64,000 nucleotides of DNA from an uncultured Bacilli bacterium (GTDB taxonomy: Bacteria > Bacillota_I > Bacilli_A > RF39 > UBA660). The DNA is taken from the NCBI GenBank assembly GCA_934090795.1, contig CAKOJQ010000005.1:54391-118390 (forward strand). The letters run 5' to 3'. Shown here piece after piece: positions 40,218-63,602 of this stretch (positions are counted from its first letter, which is position 1; every line of letters begins with the position of its first letter). The notes under the pieces are model-generated. The model was not told the DNA's origin. It saw only the letters and a program-made list of their open reading frames with translations, and made no database searches. The position numbers and the translations under genes were made by a program.

Positions 40218-40607
40218 TTATCTCATAACATAAGATTTATAAATAGGTCTATCCATTTCTTTTGCTTTATTTCTAACCTCATTTATAATTGAGATTACCT
40301 CTAAATAATTATCTACTTCCTTCTCCGTTGCAAGACATATTGGAGCAATTCTACTTGAAGTTAAAACTTCATCGTCAAAATCAATAACTTTAAATAAAGT
40401 TTCAACATAAAAACATTCATTGATATTCGTAACATTATAATCACAACCATTTACATACTTTAAAGGATAACAATAATTATTACCTATTTCTCTAGCAACA
40501 ATCATCCCATTTTCTTTAACAATCGTAAAATATATTATCTCATTCACACTTTCATCTTGACATGATTTTAATTTTCCTTTAAATATTTTACCTTCTACAT
40601 TAAACAT
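40218..40607 (-). CDS. hypothetical protein, tandem paralogue 2
   Basis: 129 aa. Shares F-x-[VL]-[ED]-G-[KR]-x-F and IY..IV...G.V.A.I.G.N segments with the 40636-41025 ORF. Confidence 0.5.
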   Translation of the reverse strand: MFNVEGKIFKGKLKSCQDESVNEIIYFTIVKENGMIVAREIGNNYCYPLKYVNGCDYNVTNINECFYVETLFKVIDFDDEVLTSSRIAPICLATEKEVDNYLEVISIINEVRNKAKEMDRPIYKSYVMR

Positions 40608-40635: not shown

Positions 40636-41025
40636 CTATCTTAAACCATAAGTTTTCTTTTTACTTTGACTTGATTTTCTATAACTTAACTCAATAAAAT
40701 CTATAACATCACGATTTGCTTGATAATATGGAGCAAAATGATTATTAGTAAATAATCCATTATCTCTTACAATAATTTCAAAAGGTGAATCAACATAATT
40801 TCTTGAATATTCTTCATGCATTAAATACCCTTTTAAAATACCATCATTATCTCTATAATATATCGGCATTAATTCATTACTACCAACAATTTTAGCATAA
40901 ACACTGCCATCTTCCGTTCTAACAATTTGATAATAAATTCTTGAAATAGCAAGTGGATTATCAAAATTTTTCATATTTGCTCTAAAATATCTTCCATCTA
41001 AATCAAAATAATTTGAATTTTTCAT
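40636..41025 (-). CDS. hypothetical protein, tandem paralogue 1
   Basis: 129 aa. See the previous feature. Confidence 0.5.
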   Translation of the reverse strand: MKNSNYFDLDGRYFRANMKNFDNPLAISRIYYQIVRTEDGSVYAKIVGSNELMPIYYRDNDGILKGYLMHEEYSRNYVDSPFEIIVRDNGLFTNNHFAPYYQANRDVIDFIELSYRKSSQSKKKTYGLR

Positions 41026-42716: not shown

Positions 42717-43268
42717 CTATTTTAAAAATTTTGATTTTTCATGACAAGAATTTTCTTTTTTTAGAAATTCTATTAAATCTCTTAAATTATTTTCATTTCG
42801 AATATATTGTTTCATTTCATCTTTAGATATAACTTTATCTTCTTGATGATAAGCATAATACCATAATCCAGATGAATCACATATATAATTTTTTAATTTC
42901 CAAGTAGGAATATCTATAGTATTATCAACCATAATATTTATTAATAATTTTTCTTCTTCATTTAATTCATATTTAGCATTTCGACATGGACACATATCAC
43001 CATCTTGATAAACAAACCAATTATCATAAATTTGTGGGATAACTGGTCCGTGAGGCCATGCTACGAAATCTTCTAGTATCATCTTACATTCATCGTGATT
43101 AACTAGCCAAAATAATTTACACAAATAAATAATTTTTTGAACTTTACTACTTGTAAGCATTACTCTAGTTTTTCCTAATTCATTTCTCCAAATATTTTGA
43201 GCATTCGTTCTTTTAATAATTTTATTAACAACACTATAACAATTTGGAATATTTTCAAATGTTTCCAT
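42717..43268 (-). CDS. Panacea (DUF4065, SocA/GepA-like) domain protein
   Basis: LTSSKVQKIIYLCKLFWLVNHDECKMILEDFVAWPHGPVIPQIYDNW matches the KLQKLLYY..L....plf.e.feAW.hGPV...iY core of the family. RBS TAGGAGGA. Confidence 0.6.
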   Translation of the reverse strand: METFENIPNCYSVVNKIIKRTNAQNIWRNELGKTRVMLTSSKVQKIIYLCKLFWLVNHDECKMILEDFVAWPHGPVIPQIYDNWFVYQDGDMCPCRNAKYELNEEEKLLINIMVDNTIDIPTWKLKNYICDSSGLWYYAYHQEDKVISKDEMKQYIRNENNLRDLIEFLKKENSCHEKSKFLK

Positions 43269-43432
43269 AAAATCCTCCTAATCAAATATTAAATCATTAT
43301 GGATTACTACAAGCACAAATATATTTAACTACTTCTGCTGATGTAACTACCCATTATCATATCATATATTTATAGTAAAAAAACATATTATTATTTTATA
43401 TTTTTTAATTATGAAATATCGTGCATTTTTTC

Positions 43433-43462
43433 TTGACCTAACATCTAATAATTTGATATTCT
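43433..43462 (+). promoter_or_regulatory. promoter of small-peptide module 1
   Basis: TTGACC, then 18 nt, then TATTCT with TG one base upstream of the -10. Identical in module 2. Confidence 0.55.
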
Positions 43463-43530
43463 ATTACCTAAGGAACATTTAATTGTTTAGGTGATTACTT
43501 CTATTCTTTTTATAGAAAGAGGTGATAGTT

Positions 43531-43626
43531 GTGAATAAGAAATTATTATATTTTATTTTAATTAATTTATTTATAATTATTTTTATTTTATTCTATATTA
43601 TTATTAAAATGATTGTGTTAAAATAA
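43531..43626 (+). CDS. 31-aa hydrophobic peptide (type I toxin-like), module 1
   Basis: Not in the ORF track. RBS AAGAGGTGA, 5 nt, then GTG. Reads (M)NKKLLYFILINLFIIIFILFYIIIKMIVLK*. Confidence 0.5.
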   Translation: MNKKLLYFILINLFIIIFILFYIIIKMIVLK

Positions 43627-43727
43627 AAACCACCATAAACAGGGGGTTTTGTGAAAACTACAAAAAGGTAATCACTTAACATCCAAAATTAGGTGTTCCT
43701 TTTTTATTTTATGTAAGTCTTCCTTAC
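43618..43727 (-). ncRNA. predicted antisense RNA, module 1
   Basis: Minus-strand promoter TTGAAG (43762-43757), 17 nt, then TAGTAT (43739-43734) with a TGA extension. 5' hairpin GTAAG-GAAGA-CTTAC. Ends at hairpin AAAACCCCC-TGTTTAT-GGTGGTTTT followed by TATTTT, overlapping the peptide stop codon. Boundaries are predicted only. Confidence 0.35.
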
Positions 43728-43804
43728 ATATTCATACTATCATATATTTAAATTATCTTCAAGATATTAATTAGTTCAAATATGAAATATTGTGTATCTT
43801 TTCC

Positions 43805-43834
43805 TTGACCTAACATCTAATAATTTGATATTCT
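43805..43834 (+). promoter_or_regulatory. promoter of small-peptide module 2
   Basis: TTGACC, then 18 nt, then TATTCT. Same sequence as module 1. Confidence 0.55.
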
Positions 43835-43904
43835 ATTCCTTAAGGAACATTTAATTGTTAGTGTGATTACCTTTTTTCAAACATTATTGAAAGAAGGTAA
43901 TGTT

Positions 43905-43982
43905 ATGAGCAAGAAAGATTGTTTAATTTTTATCTTACTTATAATTATCATATTATTAATAGTAGTTATCTTGTCTAAATAA
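43905..43982 (+). CDS. 25-aa hydrophobic peptide (type I toxin-like), module 2
   Basis: Not in the ORF track. ATG preceded by GAAGGTAA, which is buried in a 14-bp stem (43867-43880 with 43887-43900). Reads MSKKDCLIFILLIIIILLIVVILSK*. Confidence 0.5.
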   Translation: MSKKDCLIFILLIIIILLIVVILSK

Positions 43983-43994
43983 CTACTATTAATA

Positions 43995-44104
43995 CAAAAA
44001 TTTCACCTAACACAGGGGTGTTTTGGTGTTTTTCCTATAAAGGCAATCACTTAACATTCTCCAAATTAGGTGTTCCTTTTTTATTTTATGTAAGTCTTCC
44101 TTAC
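43995..44104 (-). ncRNA. predicted antisense RNA, module 2
   Basis: Minus-strand promoter TTGTAC (44139-44134), 17 nt, then TATTAT (44116-44111) with a TGA extension. Same 5' hairpin GTAAGGAAGACTTAC. An imperfect bidirectional hairpin lies at 44004-44028. Boundaries are predicted only. Confidence 0.35.
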
Positions 44105-44162
44105 ACATTCATAATATCAAATTTTAATAATTTGTACAAGTATTACTAACGTAATTTCACAG

Positions 44163-44248
44163 ACAAACAAAATGAGTTCATAAATACCTTTGCTTTATAG
44201 ATTTCATTACTTGTAAGTTTTGCCCAAGCAAAGTTCACCTTTGTTTGT
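44163..44248. repeat. nested inverted repeat (possible structured RNA or recombination scar)
   Basis: The outer arms are ACAAACAAA (44163-44171) and TTTGTTTGT (44240-44248). The inner arms are CTTTGCTT (44188-44195) and AAGCAAAG (44226-44233). Confidence 0.4.
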
Positions 44249-44292
44249 TATCTATAATTATAAATTGCTATCATTTAAACTAAAGTTTAACA

Positions 44293-44662
44293 TATATTTG
44301 TAATTTAAAATATTATTTATTTCTTTAAATCTATGAGTATAATAAATTAGCTTTTTACTATCTATTATAGTACCAACTATATCGCCAAAATGATCTTTTA
44401 ACATAATATCAAATGCCAAATCCGGATATATTTCTACCTCATTAAATAATTCTTTATCTAAGTTAATATAATTAATATCTATTATATAAAAAATTATATA
44501 TTCTTCTTTTAAGTTATTAACATATTCTTGTTCTTCAGTAGTTAATTATTCATATACATGCATATTAACATAAAAATTATTTGATATTTTTGTATTAACT
44601 TCTTTATATTTAAAAGAATTACTTCAAAACATATTAATTTTCCAGGAAGATATACTCTATCA
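44293..44662 (-). pseudogene. decayed duplicate of the 5' end (about 125 codons plus promoter) of the large orphan gene
   Basis: Clear nucleotide similarity to 46722-47115, including the upstream TGTGATAGAGTATA box. Two in-frame stops lie near the 5' end. The open part reads ..TTEEQEYVNNLKEEY..NLDKELFNEVEIY..MLKDHFGDI..DSKKLIYYTHRFKEINNIL.., against ..TIEEQEFINNLKKEY..NLDKELFNEVEMY..MLKDNFGDI..DSKKLIYFAHRFKEINNIL.. in the intact gene. Confidence 0.65.
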
Positions 44663-44710
44663 CAAGTAAATAAAAAACGCAAAATTATTTATTAAATTAA
44701 ATTACGTGTT

Positions 44711-44854
44711 TTGTATTAACTTTACGATTGATATTCTAGTATAATACTGCCTAATAAATATTTAGCTGCTATCGTAATTACCTTTTTTCAAACATTAACG
44801 AAAAAAGGTGATTCTATGAGCAGGAAAGGTTGTTTAATTCTATCTTACTTATAA
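44711..44854 (+). pseudogene. decayed third small-peptide module
   Basis: Promoter remnant TTGTAT, 15 nt, then TATTCT. A 10-bp SD-burying stem is retained (44780-44789 with 44800-44809). ATG 44816 reads MSRKGCLILSYL*, which is module 2 (MSKKDCLIFILL..) with a 1-nt deletion. The 3' half of the module is replaced by the end of the large gene. Confidence 0.45.
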
Positions 44855-44862
44855 ACATCTAA

Positions 44863-47085
44863 TTAGCTTTTGCTTTTAACTAATTTATCAATTTCTTTTC
44901 CGACTGAACTAAATTGTAATTTTAAATCTTTTTTACATTTATTTAAATTTATAATATAATCATTAAGAGCAGTTTCATATGATTTTAAAATATCTTTTTT
45001 ATTTTCGCATTGTAAACTATCTTTTCTTGCTAACCATAAATAATCATTAACATTATATAAAACATTATTTTTTTCTAGTATTATCAATCTGTTAAACATA
45101 TTAGTAAAAACGAAATAATAATCTACTAGTTTTATTTGGTTCAAAGATTGAAAAATATCATAAAATAAATTATATATATAATCAAAAATTATCATGTTAT
45201 TTTCATTATTATCATCCATATCAAATATTTGTTTAGGCAAAACTATAGCAGAACAAATACGTTGCAAAATCACATCATATATTTGTGTTAAAAATTGCAA
45301 ATTATCTGATACACATGAAAGAATAATATCAAAATTAATATTTAACATATTATTTGTTTCTGGCAATATAAGCAATGTATTCTCTTTGTAGCTAAAATTC
45401 AAAATATCTATTATTATTAACATTTTTTCTAAATCATTATTTAAATATATTTTATTTAAATACGTATTTTCCGAATATGTATTTTCCCTTTCTTCACAAA
45501 TATTTATAGAAAGAAATTTTGTTTTACTAGGCACATATGTATCCATAATATTATGTATCGTATATGTTTTTGATTTACAACATTTATTACGATAGTAAAT
45601 AAATTTGCTTAAATTACAATTATCTGATAAAAATGGTAGAATATTAAAATTTATTTTATTTTTATATAATAAATAAAATAGTTTTTGGTCATTTAAAATT
45701 TTTGCCGTCGGTTTTGCTTTAAATGGCGAATATTCTTTTAGTTCGTTAGTAACTAATCCCGTAATATATTTATAAAATTCAATTTTTGTTGTTTGTTCAC
45801 TAATAGCAATATCTAAAACATTCCAGCCATATTTAAGTTGTTCATTAAAATATAAATCAAACCCATTTGAATAATCTAATGCTAAAAGAAAATCCAAATC
45901 TTCAAATTTTTTAATATCAAAAGAATCACTTATTAGTTTGTTTTTTGGTAAATCTTTTCTTTGACAAAATTCTACTTGACTTGAATTAAAAATATCCAAA
46001 AGAAAATTATATACTTTATCGTTTATAATACTTGTTCTAAAAATTTTGGATTTCTTTAATAAAAACATTTCTAACTTTTTTTGCAAATTTTTATTATATA
46101 TTTTTAATTCTTCATCACTTGCTTTATTTTGACAATATTTAATAAAACCATTATTAAAAGGCATACATGTATAAACATTAAATATTATTTGATATAATTC
46201 TTCAAAATCTTCTTTAGTTAATGTATTTCTACCATATTTATTAAAGATATTATAATACATTTTGATTATCATTAAATTATTTATCATTTCTTGATGACAA
46301 TTTTTATTTTGAATTTCACTATGTGCGATTATTTCTAGCTGTTCTTTTAGTCTATTTAACATATCTTTATTATCATATATGAATTTGTCTATATGTATTT
46401 CCATATATGTTATTTTATCAACTATTTCTAAATTATTATTAAAATCAAGTGATGAATTGAATAAATCATTATAATCTTTTTCTACTTCATTATACCTTTT
46501 TTCTAATTCATTTTTAATATTTTCACTTATATTTTTAGGGTAATTAGCAATTGCTTTGGCACTATATTCATATATTTTTTGATTAGTTATTAAACATGAT
46601 CTATTTATAATATCAATTTGATAATCAAGAGCTTTAAATATATTTATTTTTCTTTTACCTAATACATATAATCCCGTATATTTAGTTAGATATTTTTTAT
46701 CTTTTATTATTTCATTTAAAGCAATATATTTATATTTTAAAATATTATTTATTTCTTTAAATCTATGAGCAAAATATATTAGTTTTTTACTATCTATCAT
46801 AGAACTTAGTATATCGCCAAAATTATCTTTAAGCATAATATCCAAAACTAGGTCTAGATACATTTCCACTTCATTAAATAGTTCTTTATCCAAGTTAATA
46901 TAATCATCACAAGTTTCAAAAAGGCTTAGATATTCTTTTTTTAAATTATTAATAAATTCTTGTTCTTCGATTGTTAATTCTTCAAATGAAGGCATTATAG
47001 TATAAGAATTATTTGCTATACTCGCATTAAAATTATTACCTTTTTCACTTTTCTTTTTAAATAAATTGTTCCAAAACACATACAT
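44863..47085 (-). CDS. large orphan protein (about 740 aa), function unknown
   Basis: Long uninterrupted ORF. The track starts it at TTG 47115, but that codon lies inside the predicted extended -10 (TGATAGAGT). ATG 47085 or GTG 47079 downstream of a G7 tract is more plausible. No transmembrane segment, Walker A or other catalytic motif recognised by eye. Confidence 0.6.
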   Translation of the reverse strand: MYVFWNNLFKKKSEKGNNFNASIANNSYTIMPSFEELTIEEQEFINNLKKEYLSLFETCDDYINLDKELFNEVEMYLDLVLDIMLKDNFGDILSSMIDSKKLIYFAHRFKEINNILKYKYIALNEIIKDKKYLTKYTGLYVLGKRKINIFKALDYQIDIINRSCLITNQKIYEYSAKAIANYPKNISENIKNELEKRYNEVEKDYNDLFNSSLDFNNNLEIVDKITYMEIHIDKFIYDNKDMLNRLKEQLEIIAHSEIQNKNCHQEMINNLMIIKMYYNIFNKYGRNTLTKEDFEELYQIIFNVYTCMPFNNGFIKYCQNKASDEELKIYNKNLQKKLEMFLLKKSKIFRTSIINDKVYNFLLDIFNSSQVEFCQRKDLPKNKLISDSFDIKKFEDLDFLLALDYSNGFDLYFNEQLKYGWNVLDIAISEQTTKIEFYKYITGLVTNELKEYSPFKAKPTAKILNDQKLFYLLYKNKINFNILPFLSDNCNLSKFIYYRNKCCKSKTYTIHNIMDTYVPSKTKFLSINICEERENTYSENTYLNKIYLNNDLEKMLIIIDILNFSYKENTLLILPETNNMLNINFDIILSCVSDNLQFLTQIYDVILQRICSAIVLPKQIFDMDDNNENNMIIFDYIYNLFYDIFQSLNQIKLVDYYFVFTNMFNRLIILEKNNVLYNVNDYLWLARKDSLQCENKKDILKSYETALNDYIINLNKCKKDLKLQFSSVGKEIDKLVKSKS

Positions 47086-47135
47086 CACCCCCCCAGGCAA
47101 GGTATACTCTATCAAATACTAAAAATCACTAAATA

Positions 47136-47744
47136 TTAATTTTTACCTGACTTTTTTATATATTTTTTTATTTTTTTACAATCAAAACAATCACTTATAT
47201 AATCACTTAACAAATCGTATTTTTCAAGATTGCAAATTGTAAGAGGCAATAATTTTCTTTCATAATCTGATAATGATTGCAAGTAAAAAATAATTTTTTC
47301 TCGAATAATTGAAATTTCATCATCAGTAGAATCCATATTATAGCTTTCATCACAAATTGACGCCAAATAGGCAAATAAATGAATATCCCTCAAACTTTCA
47401 TATTCTTTATTACTATAAATTCTTAAATAATAATCTACAATTTCATTTAACTTATTTTTTGCTTCACCGCAACAAGAATCTTCAACGCTTTCAATTATAA
47501 TATTTAAATAAAAAACAAAACATGGATCATTAAGTAAGTCAGCATATTGTTTATATTTTTCAATATTTTTCAAGTCATAAGACTTAATAGCACTCTTTAT
47601 TTTTTCTTCATATCTATTATCACTAGAATAAATTGTTTCTAAACCTATTCATAAGCAACACTGATATCCAGCATTAATTATAGTTCTAAATTTATTTTAT
47701 ATTTCTTCAAAAGTCATTCCTTCAACATAATCTAAATAATACAT
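47136..47744 (-). pseudogene. paralogue of the 47797-48399 gene carrying two in-frame stops
   Basis: One frame runs from ATG 47744 (RBS GGAG, 9 nt upstream) and reads MYYLDYVEGMTFEEI*NKFRTIINAGYQCCL*IGLETIYSSDNRYEEKIKSAIKSYDLKNIEKYKQYADLLNDPCF... It aligns along its length with the 200-aa paralogue (..IEDIVAEFKKIIESHGKCYIKIGSFTITSDDKDYEEFIRNAILVYKNEAYKKYEELLKDPLF..). The track's 145-aa ORF (TTG 47573) is the part after the second stop. Confidence 0.55.
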
Positions 47745-47796
47745 AATAAACATCTCCTATCACAATTTGTATCAATTTTTTTACAAGTATATCATT

Positions 47797-48399
47797 TTAT
47801 ATTCTTTTTAATAATTCTTTAATTTCTCTATCTTCAAAATAATTATTATATATAAATTTAGCATAATCACCATATATGCTATATTTTATTATATTTTTTA
47901 AAGTATATAACATAATTTTTTTGTTATAAGCTGACAAATTTAACAAATAATTTATTTTTTCTAATATAATATAATGTTTATTTTGAGGTAAAATATCTTG
48001 TTTTGAGTGAACTAACTTAAATGCTACTAGTAATTCCGAAAACAATTCTATATCTTTTAATGTCTTGCTATAATCAACCTCAGCATATGTTCTTAAGTAA
48101 TGTAATAAAATTTCATCTCTATATTCATAACGAACATTTTCATTAATAACGCTCAAATGACATACAAAAAGAGGATCTTTTAAAAGTTCTTCATATTTTT
48201 TATATGCTTCATTTTTATAAACTAAAATTGCATTTCTAATAAATTCTTCATAATCTTTATCATCTGATGTAATAGTAAAACTTCCAATTTTAATGTAACA
48301 TTTTCCATGTGATTCAATTATCTTTTTAAATTCAGCAACAATATCTTCAATATTTTTTTCTATATCATATATTATTTCTGTTTCATTAGTTGTTAACAT
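47797..48399 (-). CDS. orphan protein (about 200 aa), function unknown
   Basis: Start moved to ATG 48399 (MLTTNETEII..), preceded by AAGGAGGAAAGTT. Upstream box TGTGGTAGAGTA. Helical composition, no family recognised. Confidence 0.6.
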   Translation of the reverse strand: MLTTNETEIIYDIEKNIEDIVAEFKKIIESHGKCYIKIGSFTITSDDKDYEEFIRNAILVYKNEAYKKYEELLKDPLFVCHLSVINENVRYEYRDEILLHYLRTYAEVDYSKTLKDIELFSELLVAFKLVHSKQDILPQNKHYIILEKINYLLNLSAYNKKIMLYTLKNIIKYSIYGDYAKFIYNNYFEDREIKELLKRI

Positions 48400-48652
48400 A
48401 ACTTTCCTCCTTAACATTTACGTGTACTCTACCACAATTAAAATAAAATTACAATATTATTTAATTGTCTTGTTAAATTTTTTTAATGATACTTAACTAT
48501 TATATAATGTACGTATTGATAAAATGTGTTTTATATTAAAAAGGTTTACAAAACCAAAAAGAACTTGAAAAAATATTTAGAGAAAAAGAGGAAAAATTAA
48601 AATCAAGAGCGAAACGTAGTTAAACTCATTTTGTTTCATACATTAATAAATA

Positions 48653-50143
48653 TTAAACAAGCTCCTTTAATGCCTTTTTAAGTTTATCTAACATCTCAAC
48701 AATCTCTTCTTCACTTTTAGCAAAAGTAAATCTTCCGACCAATTCATTCTCATTCGGCCAAGCAATACTTTTTCCAATTAAATATCTTAAATTAATTTTT
48801 TTATATAAATAAATCAATAAATCTTCATCAGAATTTATTATTCCATCTTTATAACGTTTGCCCTTTAATGCAGTAAAATCAAGTAAAATAAAGAATCCCG
48901 CCTTAACATCACATTTAATTTTAACGCCATCTATCCCCCTATTTACATCATAATTAGAAGCATATCTTTTAATAGATTCAACCACCCTATTACGATATTT
49001 TTTATCACAACAATCAATTCCCATAATCATAGTCTTAAATAAATTATAACGATACTTATATTCTTCTCTTAACTTACTAAAATATTTATCATATTCCATC
49101 TCACTACTACCAAACGCCCCAGCAAGTGCCTCACCAATAATTGCTGGAACTGCATCTATTTCTCTAAATATTTTATTAACAATCTCTCTAATAATTATTT
49201 CATCTGCAACAACAAATCCAGCTCTTAAACTAGCCATCCCATAAGATTTAGAAAGACCAAATAAAGATATCGTATTTTTAAATATTCCATCTAGGCTTGC
49301 AATAGGTTTAGCAATATCATTATCAAAACATATATCACGATAAATTAAATCATCAATAATAAACATATTATTATCTTTAATAACCTTGCCAAGTTCTTCT
49401 AATCTATCTTTATCTGATTCACCCATATAATTACCTAAAGGATTATTCGGATTACTATTTAAATAAGCAACAACCCTAGGAACATAATTTAAATCTTTAT
49501 ATTTAACCCTAAGTTCATCATTAATCTCTTTAATTTTTCGTTCTAACATCTTTGGATTAATCAAATAATTATCCTCTTCTAATAAAGGAATAGCCTCAAT
49601 ATTAACATTTAATCTTTCCGGTTTAAAAGTAAATAATCCGTAATTAGGAGCAGTAGTTAAAATAACATCATAAGGTCTTGCTATTATATCAATAACATAA
49701 TTAAAAGCCTGACTAGTAGAAACGCACATCGTTAAATTATTTACCGATAAGCCCTTATTATCAATATCTTCATAATTATATGCATCATCATTCCTAATTC
49801 CTATTTTTTCTACATAATCAAGAAGAACTTTCCTAACCCTATCATCACCCTCAGAATAAGGATATTTATATAACTCATTACCATGAATATACCTATCTAG
49901 TCTTTTAATAACATCTGGATAAGCATCATAACATAATGGATTACCACTAGTAAAATTTAAATCTTTTTTACTATCATATAAATTATTTAAAATATAATCA
50001 TAAATATTAAACCCATCTTTAACTCCTTTAACATATTTAGAAAAAGGTTTATTATCTAATCTCTTACCAACATGAGGAAATCCAAACTTTCTTTCCTTCA
50101 AATAAGGATATCTTTTTAAAATATCGCCAAATAACTTATCCAT
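48653..50143 (-). CDS. PLP-dependent aminotransferase, class I/II
   Basis: NSNPNNPLGN and SLFGLSKSYGMASLRAGF (PLP lysine) motifs. 496 aa. Last gene of the NAD operon. Confidence 0.72.
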   Translation of the reverse strand: MDKLFGDILKRYPYLKERKFGFPHVGKRLDNKPFSKYVKGVKDGFNIYDYILNNLYDSKKDLNFTSGNPLCYDAYPDVIKRLDRYIHGNELYKYPYSEGDDRVRKVLLDYVEKIGIRNDDAYNYEDIDNKGLSVNNLTMCVSTSQAFNYVIDIIARPYDVILTTAPNYGLFTFKPERLNVNIEAIPLLEEDNYLINPKMLERKIKEINDELRVKYKDLNYVPRVVAYLNSNPNNPLGNYMGESDKDRLEELGKVIKDNNMFIIDDLIYRDICFDNDIAKPIASLDGIFKNTISLFGLSKSYGMASLRAGFVVADEIIIREIVNKIFREIDAVPAIIGEALAGAFGSSEMEYDKYFSKLREEYKYRYNLFKTMIMGIDCCDKKYRNRVVESIKRYASNYDVNRGIDGVKIKCDVKAGFFILLDFTALKGKRYKDGIINSDEDLLIYLYKKINLRYLIGKSIAWPNENELVGRFTFAKSEEEIVEMLDKLKKALKELV

Positions 50144-60314: not shown

Positions 60315-63300
60315 CTATGGCCAGTTTTTATATCTTTCTAAGAATTGTTTAGGAAACAATGGATCAGGATATTTTCCATCTTCGACATAATCTAATCCTT
60401 TTATACATGAACTTATCGTTCCTGTGCAGTATCTTCCATCTACATAATATTTCCACTTATTTCTTCCACTTGTATCACTAAAATAAGTACTAACAAATGA
60501 GCTTTCACACTCTTTCATATCATTATTACATTTAAAGCAATACTGAGAATCTATATCCTTACTATTAGGAACTATGCCAGCACACATATTCATTTCTGAA
60601 TATTTGAAATATGATTTTGCAGAATTTTTCTTAATTAATTGTAAATCTTTAGTTGTTAATGTAACTTCATATTCCAAATAATCTCTTGAAATATCATCAT
60701 AAATATCATGTTTACCAGTACCTGAGCTATCTGCTAAATAAGTGGCTGGTTCATTACCACTATTTTTGGCATTTACTTTTGATGTGTTTAAAGCAATATA
60801 ATTATTTGTTTCACTACTATCAAGTGAAGCATAACCACTGCCCTGTTCTATTAAAGCTTTAGCCGCATTTCCTTTGGCATCTGACCAATTGGTTTCTCCA
60901 TCTTTTCTCTCATTAGGAGTAACATCAGCAAGCGATATGCTTCGGTAATAGAATTGTGGTAAATATTCAGAACTATCTCCATCACCACCATCATCCTCAC
61001 AAGACTCACAAATGCGATTAAATGCCATTTCCATATTACAATAATTACATGTACTTTCAAATGAAGTAATATTATTATTTCTAATATAAGTATCTATTAA
61101 TTCTTGAACTTTTCTCCTTCCATTAGAATAACTAGCACCTACATTGTTCATCTTAAAACTTGTAGTATACTCTCCAGCATAAGAAGTAAGTTCGATATTA
61201 TAAACATAACCAATTTCTAAACCATTAATATCTGTAACTGCTGAATTAGATGTATAATTTAAGGTTTTATATTCTCCAGAATTCATTAAAGAAAATGAAT
61301 TATTTGGTGGTCTATAATAATATATTTTACTTATCTTTTCTTCACCTTCAACTATTATATTAGTATCAGATGTACTATAAGGAATAGTTCCATCAGTAGC
61401 AAGTTGCATTGAATTAAATGATAAATTATCAAATGAATATCCCATACATGGTTTCTCATTTGGATTAGTCCAATAGCAATTATCATGAGTTCCATCAGGC
61501 CAAGCATAATGTTCTGTGTTTCCTTGTTCATCAATTAATACAACACCATTTAAACCTCTTGTTGCTGCATCAGAACCCGATTTAGGAGCAATCGCAGCCA
61601 AACTATTACTCAAAGCACTTGTATTTTTACCACTAGAATTTAACCCAGTATAATTAAGTCCCAAATAGCTTGAACTACTTGTTCCAGTTGTTGTATTAGG
61701 CCAATATTTTACAGCCTCAGTATTATTAACCATATTAATGGTATATTCTTTATTTCCTTCTGTTTTAGAATTTTGTTTATAGGTAAAATCCACTTGTGGA
61801 ACACCTGTTAAACTTACATTACTTCCCGAATAATCTTTTAATGCAGTCATACATTTTTCACGGGCAGTTTCTAAACTAAGACGTGCAGCAATGGCTGCTT
61901 TATATGCCTGTTGTTTTTGAGGCTCTACTTTTTGATATGAGTCTTCATATGTTTGTTTTGCAGCATCTCTTACAGCCTTAGCATTTCGTTCATTTGCCTT
62001 ACAAGTAACCTCATCATACACAGTTGTATATACATTTTTCTTTGTCGTTGGGTTCCATGTTGTAACAACTTTTTTACAAGTTTGATTTATAACTGCCTCT
62101 GATGCAGCACCATATGCTCTATCAGCATCTAAATATGCTTGATATTTTACTTTAACGTCTTTAACAGCCTTTTGCCAATTATCATATGCACCAATTTCAA
62201 CCCAAGCAGCAGCTTTATAATCACTAAGCCATTGTTTATAATGAAAGAAGAACGTTGATTTAACTCTTTCCACAATAAGTGGTTGTCTAAAATACCCATT
62301 AACATTATCATAATTATTACTTATATAACTATCAAACACAAAGAATTGTCCAGATACAGAAGCAGCAGTTGCTGGCGTATACATATCAACAGTTTCAGTA
62401 GTAAACGTTCCACAGTAATTATTAATAGTTGAATCTAAATAATCAGAATACTTACTATCATTACCAATAAAACTTCCACTAGAATTTGTCCCCTCATTAT
62501 CTAAATCTTGCATTAAATATTTCATATTACGCATTCTAACATAAGAATGATTAAATGCCTTATAAGAACTTTCGCCATCACATGAACTCTTTCCACAACT
62601 TTGTTCTAAATGAACAATAGGTCCACATTTCTTAATATAATCATCTTCTTCTTTAGAACCCTCAACAATATTACTAGTATCTATATTAGCACATGTATTA
62701 GGAACATCTATATAAATAGAAGCACTACTACTTTGATTATAATCATTACTAACTAATTTTATAAATCTTTGAAAAGGTCCATTAAAATAATTAGAACAAC
62801 TTCCTTGACTTTCATCACAAGTATATATTTTAACTTCATTAATTAAACCAGTTCCAGTATTACCTTCAATATTTATATCTACTTTAATTGAATTCTTACT
62901 AGCAATATTACCTGTAACCGTTATTTTATAATTGTTAGTACCACTGCTATCTTTAGAAATATTACAACTTAATCCACTTGATGAACAACTACTAACAATT
63001 ACATTTCCACCATCACTTTGATTAACAATGGAAACAATCGCTGTAGCAACCCCATTTGTGCCATCATAAGTATTACTTATCTTAGTTACTTTAAAACTTC
63101 CAATCGTTCCTGTACTTGATGGTAAATATTTACTTTCTTCATCTTTACAAGTTCCTTCATTAACACAAACTCCAATTTTAACCATTTTTCCAATTGCATC
63201 ATCAGCATCATAATTAAGCATATTATTTATGATATTATCATTTAAAGAGCCTTTAAGTGAAGCACCCTTACGTTTCTTTTTTAATGTATAAATACGAAAC

Positions 63301-63602
63301 GCATGTGCTTGTGATGTAGTATCAACATTATTAGTTTTAGCATAATTTGCCATTGCAATTAATCCTTTAGCAAAAGCACCACTTTTAACATTTAAAGTTT
63401 CCACACTATTTACATGAGACGGATTATGCAAATTAGCATCAATACACGTAGCAAGTTCTCCTCCAATTCGGTACTCAAACCCAAGATGAGTTGGATCACT
63501 ATAGGATCCCAATCCATTCATCGTAAATGATTCATTCGTACTATCAGCTTTAACACCAAAAGGAATAAACATTAAACTTAATAATAAAAATATTTTTTTC
63601 AT
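60315..63602 (-). CDS. large secreted Cys-rich protein, function unknown
   Basis: 1095 aa. Signal peptide MKKIFLLLSLMFIPFGVKA. More than 30 cysteines, often in close pairs (CVNEGTC, SCSSSGLSC, CNYCN..CESC, CFKCNNDMKEC). No LPXTG motif and no C-terminal anchor. Confidence 0.55.
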   Translation of the reverse strand: MKKIFLLLSLMFIPFGVKADSTNESFTMNGLGSYSDPTHLGFEYRIGGELATCIDANLHNPSHVNSVETLNVKSGAFAKGLIAMANYAKTNNVDTTSQAHAFRIYTLKKKRKGASLKGSLNDNIINNMLNYDADDAIGKMVKIGVCVNEGTCKDEESKYLPSSTGTIGSFKVTKISNTYDGTNGVATAIVSIVNQSDGGNVIVSSCSSSGLSCNISKDSSGTNNYKITVTGNIASKNSIKVDINIEGNTGTGLINEVKIYTCDESQGSCSNYFNGPFQRFIKLVSNDYNQSSSASIYIDVPNTCANIDTSNIVEGSKEEDDYIKKCGPIVHLEQSCGKSSCDGESSYKAFNHSYVRMRNMKYLMQDLDNEGTNSSGSFIGNDSKYSDYLDSTINNYCGTFTTETVDMYTPATAASVSGQFFVFDSYISNNYDNVNGYFRQPLIVERVKSTFFFHYKQWLSDYKAAAWVEIGAYDNWQKAVKDVKVKYQAYLDADRAYGAASEAVINQTCKKVVTTWNPTTKKNVYTTVYDEVTCKANERNAKAVRDAAKQTYEDSYQKVEPQKQQAYKAAIAARLSLETAREKCMTALKDYSGSNVSLTGVPQVDFTYKQNSKTEGNKEYTINMVNNTEAVKYWPNTTTGTSSSSYLGLNYTGLNSSGKNTSALSNSLAAIAPKSGSDAATRGLNGVVLIDEQGNTEHYAWPDGTHDNCYWTNPNEKPCMGYSFDNLSFNSMQLATDGTIPYSTSDTNIIVEGEEKISKIYYYRPPNNSFSLMNSGEYKTLNYTSNSAVTDINGLEIGYVYNIELTSYAGEYTTSFKMNNVGASYSNGRRKVQELIDTYIRNNNITSFESTCNYCNMEMAFNRICESCEDDGGDGDSSEYLPQFYYRSISLADVTPNERKDGETNWSDAKGNAAKALIEQGSGYASLDSSETNNYIALNTSKVNAKNSGNEPATYLADSSGTGKHDIYDDISRDYLEYEVTLTTKDLQLIKKNSAKSYFKYSEMNMCAGIVPNSKDIDSQYCFKCNNDMKECESSFVSTYFSDTSGRNKWKYYVDGRYCTGTISSCIKGLDYVEDGKYPDPLFPKQFLERYKNWP

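Follow-up and report, generated by a model that had tools for sequence, protein, structure and literature searches.

The genes of the block and their state

Here we analyzed a stretch of 64,000 nucleotides from an uncultured Bacilli bacterium (assembly GCA_934090795.1, contig CAKOJQ010000005.1, positions 54,391 to 118,390; the whole stretch is called the window throughout) and, within it, a block holding one large gene and two small ones, which a sequence-only reading of this DNA had taken for an orphan three-gene system in a conflict island. The G+C content is about 22% window-wide, and the minus strand holds almost all genes. Following this strand in its own direction, an aminotransferase gene (48653-50143) is succeeded by small gene 1, small gene 2, the large gene and about 1.6 kb of repeats that include the stump of a second large gene, beyond which lie a Panacea-domain gene (42717-43268), an NrtR-like gene and ung. 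Across the large gene the G+C content is 19-20%, and in the flanks it is 24-27%.

The large gene occupies positions 44863-47085 of the minus strand, where it had been placed before, and encodes 740 amino acids from an ATG at 47085, the start of the mechanically called open reading frame (ORF) being a TTG at 47115. Small gene 1 (47797-48399, minus strand, delimited by its ORF and by comparison with homologues) is intact here and encodes 200 amino acids. Small gene 2 (47136-47753, minus strand) is its paralogue, the two products being 35% identical (E = 1e-13), and is a pseudogene here with two in-frame stop codons, TAA at 47697-47699 and TGA at 47649-47651; both the paralogy and the inactivation of one of the pair had been proposed by the sequence-only reading and are confirmed. 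The decayed duplicate that it had noticed beside the large gene also proved to be real, being the 5' fragment of a second gene of the same family, which spans 44291-44664 on the minus strand together with its promoter box TGTGATAGAGTATA (repeat family D1), the stump proper covering 44291-44635. Nucleotides 44292-44591 are 79% identical to 46724-47023, and tblastn aligned the duplicate with residues 7-121 of the large protein at 61% amino acid identity.

The whole block is present in all four sampled strains of the window species at about 98% DNA identity, and the large gene is intact in the three strains other than that of the window, with 97.8% amino acid identity. Only two of the metagenome contigs scanned carried the flanking aminotransferase gene, and both end less than 300 nucleotides from the gene. 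The window locus is an array of large-family genes in decay, because what remains of it is an intact gene, a 5' stump and three modules without genes, two of them whole and one truncated (see below). The stump, the broken small gene 2 and the truncated module bear out the duplication and decay earlier attributed to the region.

A multigene family with a variable C-terminal half

The large protein cannot be called an orphan, since it has at least 458 homologues among the 5.8 billion protein clusters searched. They are typically of about 735 amino acids, and among the 120 homologues listed nearly all are full length (about 700-800 amino acids) and none bears a functional name or a Pfam domain. 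The family is narrow nonetheless, because an exhaustive profile search of 1.84 billion representatives gave only 46 clusters (50% identity) at E <= 0.001, and among species-representative genomes it is restricted to gut metagenome-assembled genomes (MAGs) labelled uncultured Bacilli, uncultured Tenericutes or Bacillales bacterium UBA6331, where a single MAG carries several copies. The gene for the 740-amino acid protein represents, as a dispersed copy, a multigene family, lineage-wide and with its usual site adjoining rpoB, that belongs to a single lineage of uncultured low-G+C gut Bacilli formerly binned as Tenericutes. The previous statement that none of the three products falls in a recognisable family holds, with no match for any of them in Pfam, NCBIfam, PADLOC or PHROGs. 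PDB sequence profiles gave no match for the large family, and Pfam found no domain in 10 paralogues with other C-terminal classes.

Alignments showed that the proteins of this family begin with an almost invariant MFW-S/N-N/K-LFKKK (M-F-W-x-x-L-F-K-K-K) and that conservation between paralogues and between species extends over the N-terminal 350-450 amino acids or so, where many residues are invariant, all N-terminal pairs being at least 53% identical. The remainder is very variable, and at least three mutually unalignable classes can be distinguished among the C-terminal halves; this half of the family is hypervariable and mosaic. The "truncated" tblastn matches in MAGs were considered as pseudogenes, a reading that was rejected since most are full-length ORFs with C-terminal halves too divergent to align. 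In the window protein the FWxxLFKKK motif at the N-terminus is followed by a helical domain (residues ~39-475), a variable beta-rich region (~489-690) and a C-terminal helix.

In a related gut species the genes of this family are flanked by a small methyltransferase/HAD gene pair on one side and by rpoB-rpoC on the other, and form 1-3 tandem copies about 50-160 nucleotides apart with no gene called between them, other copies being found a few kilobases off in the same chromosomal neighbourhood. The array loci that we compared belong to one species, because their rpoBC DNA is 98.0-98.7% identical, and between these strains the rpoB-proximal copies range from 62 to 98% identity in the N half and from 35 to 84% in the C half. 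The similarities of the two halves are discordant: the copies of loci L001 and L012 are 72% identical in the N half and 78% in the C half, and those of L010 and L012 are 96% and 67% identical, respectively, which therefore points to recombination between paralogues. Stumps and fragments are frequent in the family, the stumps being N-terminal fragments.

The AlphaFold2 model of the large protein is helical over residues 39-475, beta-rich over residues 489-588 and ends in a long helix. Six short strands are placed at 513-588, with predicted local distance difference test (pLDDT) means of 47-83 for the 10-residue blocks across 511-590, so that the protein can be called helix-rich, as it was from the sequence, for residues ~39-475 but not for 489-588. 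The most distant relatives recovered by the exhaustive search have about 660-725 amino acids, and in the C-terminal part of six of the ten scanned we found repeats of the BspA-type leucine-rich repeat (LRR) family LRR_5 of Pfam. Two of these relatives (P0175 with 35.5 bits and P0171 with 31.1 bits) score above the curated cut-off of LRR_5 (PF13306; 27.7 bits) and the other four below it. Profile alignment of the family with the LRR_5-bearing relatives using hhalign gave a probability of 99.5% (E = 1e-22), with an alignment that ends after the first repeat units, and the C-terminal slices aligned alone gave a probability of 49% (E = 1.7e-4). The LRR assignment is transitive and covers the variable region in part, because the window protein and its close relatives have no LRR_5 match of their own; from these profile comparisons we infer that the variable C-terminal region may be LRR-derived, which is less than demonstrated membership.

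No signal peptide, lipobox or wall anchor was found in the large protein, and no transmembrane segment either, as the sequence-only reading had stated, the maximum Kyte-Doolittle value over a 19-residue window being 1.43. Its cysteine content is 1.9%, compared with medians of 1.0% in the family and 1.1% in the window. The lack of a transmembrane segment together with the ordinary cysteine content therefore indicates a cytoplasmic protein. The hydrophobic-basic motif at the N-terminus is kept in distant relatives (for example, IWHKLFKKKNK). We considered this motif as a clearly exceptional amphipathic helix and rejected the idea, its hydrophobic moment over 12 residues being ordinary.

These data bear directly on a different explanation, according to which the family comprises variable surface or secreted proteins that leave the cell by an unrecognised export route and serve adhesion or antigen variation in the gut. 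The BspA-type LRR_5 repeats of the remote relatives, the strain-level hypervariability and mosaicism, and the existence of expanded variable BspA-like families in host-associated, genome-reduced Mollicutes (PMC4206474) would agree with it, and export might be signalled by the N-terminal motif, which is strictly conserved. However, a signal peptide, a transmembrane segment, a lipobox and a C-terminal anchor are all absent from the protein, whereas 23 of the 26 BspA-like proteins of Candidatus Mycoplasma girerdii have a C-terminal transmembrane domain (PMC4206474); its cysteine content is not reduced, and no secretion-system genes were seen beside any array examined. We regard export to the surface as rather unlikely.

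The chromosomal context of the distant relatives brings in another explanation, namely a conserved structural or scaffold role in the envelope, in division or near transcription, the C-terminal variability then reflecting relaxed constraint. A family member stands beside the MTS-methyltransferase gene and rpoB in close relatives and also in a very distant, LRR_5-bearing one (L036, 2938-6588, directly upstream of the small methyltransferase gene and rpoB), and another distant LRR_5-bearing relative (L033, 433-3463) lies directly upstream of sepF-divIVA-ileS. Also in favour of such a role, the long helical N-terminal domain shows strong conservation, and its hydrophobic-basic motif may resemble the membrane-targeting helices of division proteins. 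Yet the contexts found elsewhere are varied and unrelated, strains of one species have between 1 and 3 copies with non-orthologous copies at the locus, stumps and decay are common and the taxonomic range is very narrow, and we consider a scaffold role quite unlikely.

Peptide modules, promoter box and small genes

The repeats between the large gene and the Panacea-domain gene contain three copies of a module that would correspond to a type I toxin-antitoxin system. Copy 1 (43769-44175, both strands) encodes the peptide MSKKDCLIFILLIIIILLIVVILSK on the plus strand at 43905-43982, copy 2 (43355-43800, both strands) encodes the peptide (MIV)VNKKLLYFILINLFIIIFILFYIIIKMIVLK on the plus strand at 43522-43626, and each has a convergent small RNA-like unit on the minus strand; copy 3 (44757-44865, plus strand; repeat family D2, inverted repeat I2) is truncated and keeps the hairpin over the ribosome-binding site and a cut-short peptide ORF. 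A whole module measures about 380-400 nucleotides. Its plus strand has a promoter-like site (TTGACC-18-TATTCT with a TG at 43433-43462 in copy 2), a hairpin pairing with the ribosome-binding site (z = -4.35 in copy 1 and -2.95 in copy 2) and an ORF for a hydrophobic peptide of 25-34 amino acids, and its minus strand has a convergent small RNA-like unit of about 110 nucleotides (z = -3.6 in copy 1, and -1.3, like shuffles, in copy 2), which starts from an extended -10 promoter of its own and comprises a 5' hairpin and an end that looks like a terminator. In other species the module is found directly upstream of the first large-family gene with 77-84% DNA identity (73-84% when copy 1 of the window is compared), while the N-terminal coding DNA of the large-family genes is about 70-75% identical, below the module; module and array therefore stand side by side in many species. 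Further copies were located at L001 4897-5331, L004 9588-9968, L015 9585-9953 and 19594-20028, and L019 9176-9952.

In silico, and only at that level, the module has the layout of a type I toxin-antitoxin system, with a hydrophobic peptide, a sequestered ribosome-binding site and a convergent small RNA. Type I systems of Firmicutes with 3'-overlapping RNAs are of the txpA/RatA and bsrG/SR4 type. The module resembles these in its hydrophobic peptide of 25-34 amino acids with a basic N-terminus and a lysine-containing C-terminal end, in the 5' hairpin over the ribosome-binding site and in the convergent small RNA with its own promoter and terminator; in contrast to them, it has no match in Rfam and is fixed beside one gene family across species.

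The Panacea/SocA (PanA) antitoxin-type gene at the edge of the block (42717-43268, minus strand) was identified by Pfam PF13274 (E = 2.8e-8, 35.1 bits against a cut-off of 25.7), its match to the NCBIfam SocA model being below the cut-off, and its product contains 3.8% cysteine. Toxin-like peptide modules (43355-44175) and a Panacea gene do lie near the three genes, as had been noted. Many PanT toxins are small membrane peptides (PMC8832971), and the locus is like PanA/PanT in that a small membrane-type peptide ORF adjoins the Panacea-domain gene. It differs in that this ORF is divergent, is not part of a two-gene operon and has its own RNA-type partner; no co-directional partner ORF was found on either side of the Panacea gene. 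By analogy, cross-talk between the Panacea gene and the peptide module is conceivable.

The association of modules and arrays also invites the view that the large genes form a selfish or decaying repeat family without cellular function, spreading by duplication together with an addictive toxin-antitoxin-like module. The position of the module directly upstream of the arrays and the frequency of fragments and stumps would be expected under it, and so would the fairly high within-species dN/dS of the large gene, 0.59 (17 non-synonymous and 6 synonymous substitutions) compared with 0.04 for nadK and 0.37 for the aminotransferase gene, although 23 substitutions are too few for this ratio to be given much weight. 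Nevertheless, hundreds of ORFs of about 735 codons are intact although stop codons often arise by chance at the 22-28% G+C of these genomes. The N-terminal domain is kept in paralogues and species alike, many of its residues being invariant, and promoters and ribosome-binding sites are maintained. A family with no cellular function is thus most improbable.

The sequence-only reading had given each of the genes its own copy of an extended -10-like box. The string TGRTAGAGTA does occur 5 times in the window against 0.29 expected, a count that none of 100 shuffles reached, and all three of its intergenic copies lie within the block in gene orientation; the looser TGnTAGAGT is modestly enriched (5 against 1.7 expected, with 4 of 100 shuffles reaching 5), and a generic sigma-70 promoter scan was uninformative in this AT-rich DNA (80 sites against 69 expected). 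Upstream of small gene 1 is a promoter-like site at 48426-48454 on the minus strand (TTGTAA, a 17-nucleotide spacer and the extended -10 TGG-TAGAGT, with TGGTAGAGT at 48426-48434), and the large gene has the family-specific promoter at 47106-47134 on the same strand (extended -10 TGA-TAGAGT), with a -35-like element whose spacing is poor in this copy. The third box, described as "degenerate" (TGTGATAGGAGA at 47753-47764), overlaps an AGGAG ribosome-binding site, 9 nucleotides before the ATG at 47744, and because of this overlap it is more likely the ribosome-binding site of small gene 2 than a -10 element. The claim therefore stands for small gene 1, the large gene and the stump, and probably not for small gene 2.

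Comparison of the upstream regions of about 35 paralogues from many loci revealed two conserved promoter classes, TTGTGT-17-TGATAGAGT, present in about 25 paralogues of other species, and TTGCAT-17-TGCTAAAAT, both with a strong ribosome-binding site and an ATG about 25 nucleotides downstream. The boxes of the large gene and of the stump were therefore inherited with the gene, and the shared box is no independent link among the three genes, because the promoter element is copied along with the gene family. In the small family, distant members have instead a promoter of the ordinary TATAAT type. Adjacent genes of unknown function that have a promoter-like box in common need not form one system, a point that concerns annotation in general. 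We also observed that the large-family genes of the second C-terminal class, which have the promoter TTGCAT-17-TGCTAAAAT, are preceded by a divergent gene for a 118-amino acid membrane protein and followed by a conserved gene of about 145-166 codons (L008 14705-15190, L014 3324-3824 and L020 12368-12856).

The two small genes belong to a family of 14 members in the 5.8 billion clusters, among whose conserved residues are Y-x3-Y...R-D-I-H and E-K. Small gene 1 has two near-identical homologues (P0121 and P0122), likewise of 200 amino acids, and an intact orthologue of small gene 2 with 205 amino acids is found in another strain (P0125). The AlphaFold2 model of the small gene 1 product (pLDDT 83) shows an N-terminal beta-alpha-beta-beta unit followed by 8 helices, for which Foldseek found no match at E <= 0.001 in PDB and BFVD; PDB sequence profiles gave the small family only a chance-level E of 0.027, and Pfam no match in any of its members. 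A relationship between the small and large families was rejected, the hhalign probability being 0.2%. Another protein family, of about 215-223 amino acids and with no known domain, is encoded in the related species just downstream of rpmF (L001 1759-3103, L004 6448-7779 and L006 7-1700) in 1-3 tandem copies, a number that depends on the strain, plus fragments, and its identification with the small family of the window was rejected, as the two are separate.

Whether the large gene and the two small ones could form a single defence or toxin-immunity operon in an accessory gap, as the sequence-only reading had it, depends on whether they occur and persist together. Within the window they are adjacent on the same strand, gaps of 40-50 nucleotides without a predicted terminator separate them, the unusual TGnTAGAGT -10 is common to the large gene and small gene 1, and the Panacea-domain gene and toxin-like peptide modules are near; one other MAG, L006, also has a small-family gene, 2.8 kb upstream of a large-family array. 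However, L006 is the only 1 of 21 related large-family loci with a small-family gene, and the more distant small-family members lie in other neighbourhoods with no large-family gene near. In addition, three strains (L026-L028) have a nonsense codon at R100 of small gene 1 and a disrupted small gene 2 beside an intact large gene, one small gene is already broken in the window, no PADLOC match was found and profile comparison shows the families to be unrelated. The two genes of about 200 codons are a rare separate family that is being lost in the window species, neighbours of the large gene and not its partners, and we judge a common operon very unlikely. Distant small-family genes were seen at L022 4169-5665 and L024 1244-3646 in variable neighbourhoods beside a conserved VWA/protein-kinase pair, and these neighbourhoods hold defence-like genes (SLFN_AlbA_2 with HATPase_c_4, NERD and KAP NTPase).

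Two other observations concern the rest of the window. A tandem pair of paralogous 129-amino acid ORFs (40218-40607 and 40636-41025, minus strand; 25% identity, E = 1e-9; no known family) lies between ung and a LiaF-like gene and is absent from the same site in strain L027, whose LiaF-like region is only 67% identical to that of the window. Positions 60315-63602 of the minus strand contain an ORF of 1095 amino acids with 2.5% cysteine and no Pfam match at E <= 1e-5.

Interpretation and comparison with known systems

Taking all these results together, our best inference is that the large protein works in the cytoplasm as a binding protein whose recognition domain is variable, and that it evolves under selection of the conflict type. 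The protein would stay in the cytoplasm, where its variable C-terminal region, descended from BspA-type LRRs, would act as a recognition surface, while the conserved N-terminal part would have an output or anchoring role common to all members, perhaps exerted at the membrane by way of its hydrophobic-basic N-terminus. Recombination between paralogues would reshuffle the N- and C-terminal modules, and the selection would be like that which accompanies conflict with phages, mobile elements or competitors. Integron arrays are stabilised by toxin-antitoxin cassettes, and by analogy the toxin-antitoxin-like modules may protect the large-gene arrays from deletion. As to the complete explanation, that of a strain-variable multi-copy family with an LRR-derived recognition half, represented in the window by a decayed array with passenger small genes, we hold it about equally likely to be right or wrong. 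The conflict island of the sequence-only reading survives in part, with duplication and decay, low G+C content, toxin-like modules and strain-level hypervariability on its side, but the region contains no defence system that PADLOC recognises and the three genes are not one system.

Several points weigh against recognition in the cytoplasm. The function proposed is supported by no known domain, the AlphaFold2 model of the large protein is of moderate confidence (pLDDT 67, predicted template modelling score 0.45), and Foldseek found it no match in PDB at E <= 0.001, LRR proteins included. LRR_5 has no match in the window protein even at E <= 1, nor in any of 34 family members (the window protein and 33 others), nor in 10 further paralogues at E <= 0.1. 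Anchoring at the membrane has a weak basis because the hydrophobic moment of the N-terminus over 12 residues is not unusual, and the dN/dS ratio given above is of equally little help. Scans of IMG/VR showed no relatives of the large family, and none of the small one, and PADLOC-DB 2.0 gave no credible match, the best being E = 0.017 (CARF8) and E = 0.0011 (JetA, 15.9 bits, to the tail of the pseudogene). Finally, the position of family members near rpoB in L036 and beside sepF-divIVA in L033 would also fit a conserved cellular role. The main rivals are the exported variable surface protein and the conserved cellular scaffold, beside which the three-gene operon is the least supported.

If cytoplasmic recognition is nevertheless the correct reading, prevalent uncultured Bacilli of the human gut have, at a fixed site beside rpoB, a repertoire of recognition proteins that is specific to the strain. 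These proteins would be built on a domain without known relatives and would be candidates for a new recognition or defence module, their genes could serve as a strain-typing marker for these Bacilli, and the element directly upstream of the arrays would be a new one of the type I toxin-antitoxin-like kind.

Known systems with a conserved part and a variable part offer three comparisons. Polymorphic toxins (LXG/T7SS, Rhs, CDI) also combine a helical conserved N-terminal part with a variable C-terminal part that recombines, and the tandem copies, stumps and between-strain differences of the large family are like theirs. In contrast to them, Pfam detects no LXG or trafficking domain in the large family and none of the C-terminal classes matches a toxin domain; no immunity-sized ORF stands between tandem copies, the window gene being followed by non-coding repeats and a stump, and the stumps are N-terminal fragments rather than orphan C-terminal cassettes.

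The anti-phage Avs proteins, which are STAND/NLR-like sensors, and the lactococcal Abi genes are similar in joining a conserved "output" part to a variable, repeat-type "sensor" part in what would be a cytoplasmic protein. Further likenesses are the fixed chromosomal hot spot with a content specific to the strain, the low G+C content, the restriction to a lineage and the separate promoter of each gene. The large protein differs from them in having no NTPase, nuclease or other effector domain in Pfam or NCBIfam and no PADLOC match; the absence of a Walker A motif, noted by eye before, stands, with no NTPase family found. Pursuing this likeness, one may imagine that the family is an unrecognised innate-immunity repertoire of cytoplasmic, possibly membrane-associated receptors without an NTPase, with LRR-derived C-terminal domains diversified by recombination among tandem paralogues, a new helical effector or signalling module of about 400 amino acids and arrays kept in place by a new family of type I toxin-antitoxin modules, so that the specificities directed against phages or mobile elements would differ from strain to strain. 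This proposal appears to us unlikely.

The BspA-like families (TpLRR, or LRR_5 in Pfam) number 26 genes in Candidatus Mycoplasma girerdii and about 900 in Trichomonas vaginalis (PMC4206474, PMC2843621). As in these families, the large genes are multi-copy and strain-variable in a host-associated, low-G+C organism with a possibly small genome, the LRR_5 repeats of the distant relatives sit in the region that is variable here, and the repeated genes break short-read assemblies. Unlike BspA-like proteins, the window protein and its close relatives have no LRR_5 match at E <= 1 and possess a large conserved helical N-terminal domain of their own, and unlike most of the M. girerdii members they have neither a signal peptide nor a C-terminal transmembrane anchor. 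The family belongs with the variable repeat-protein multigene families, among which its N-terminal domain appears to be novel.

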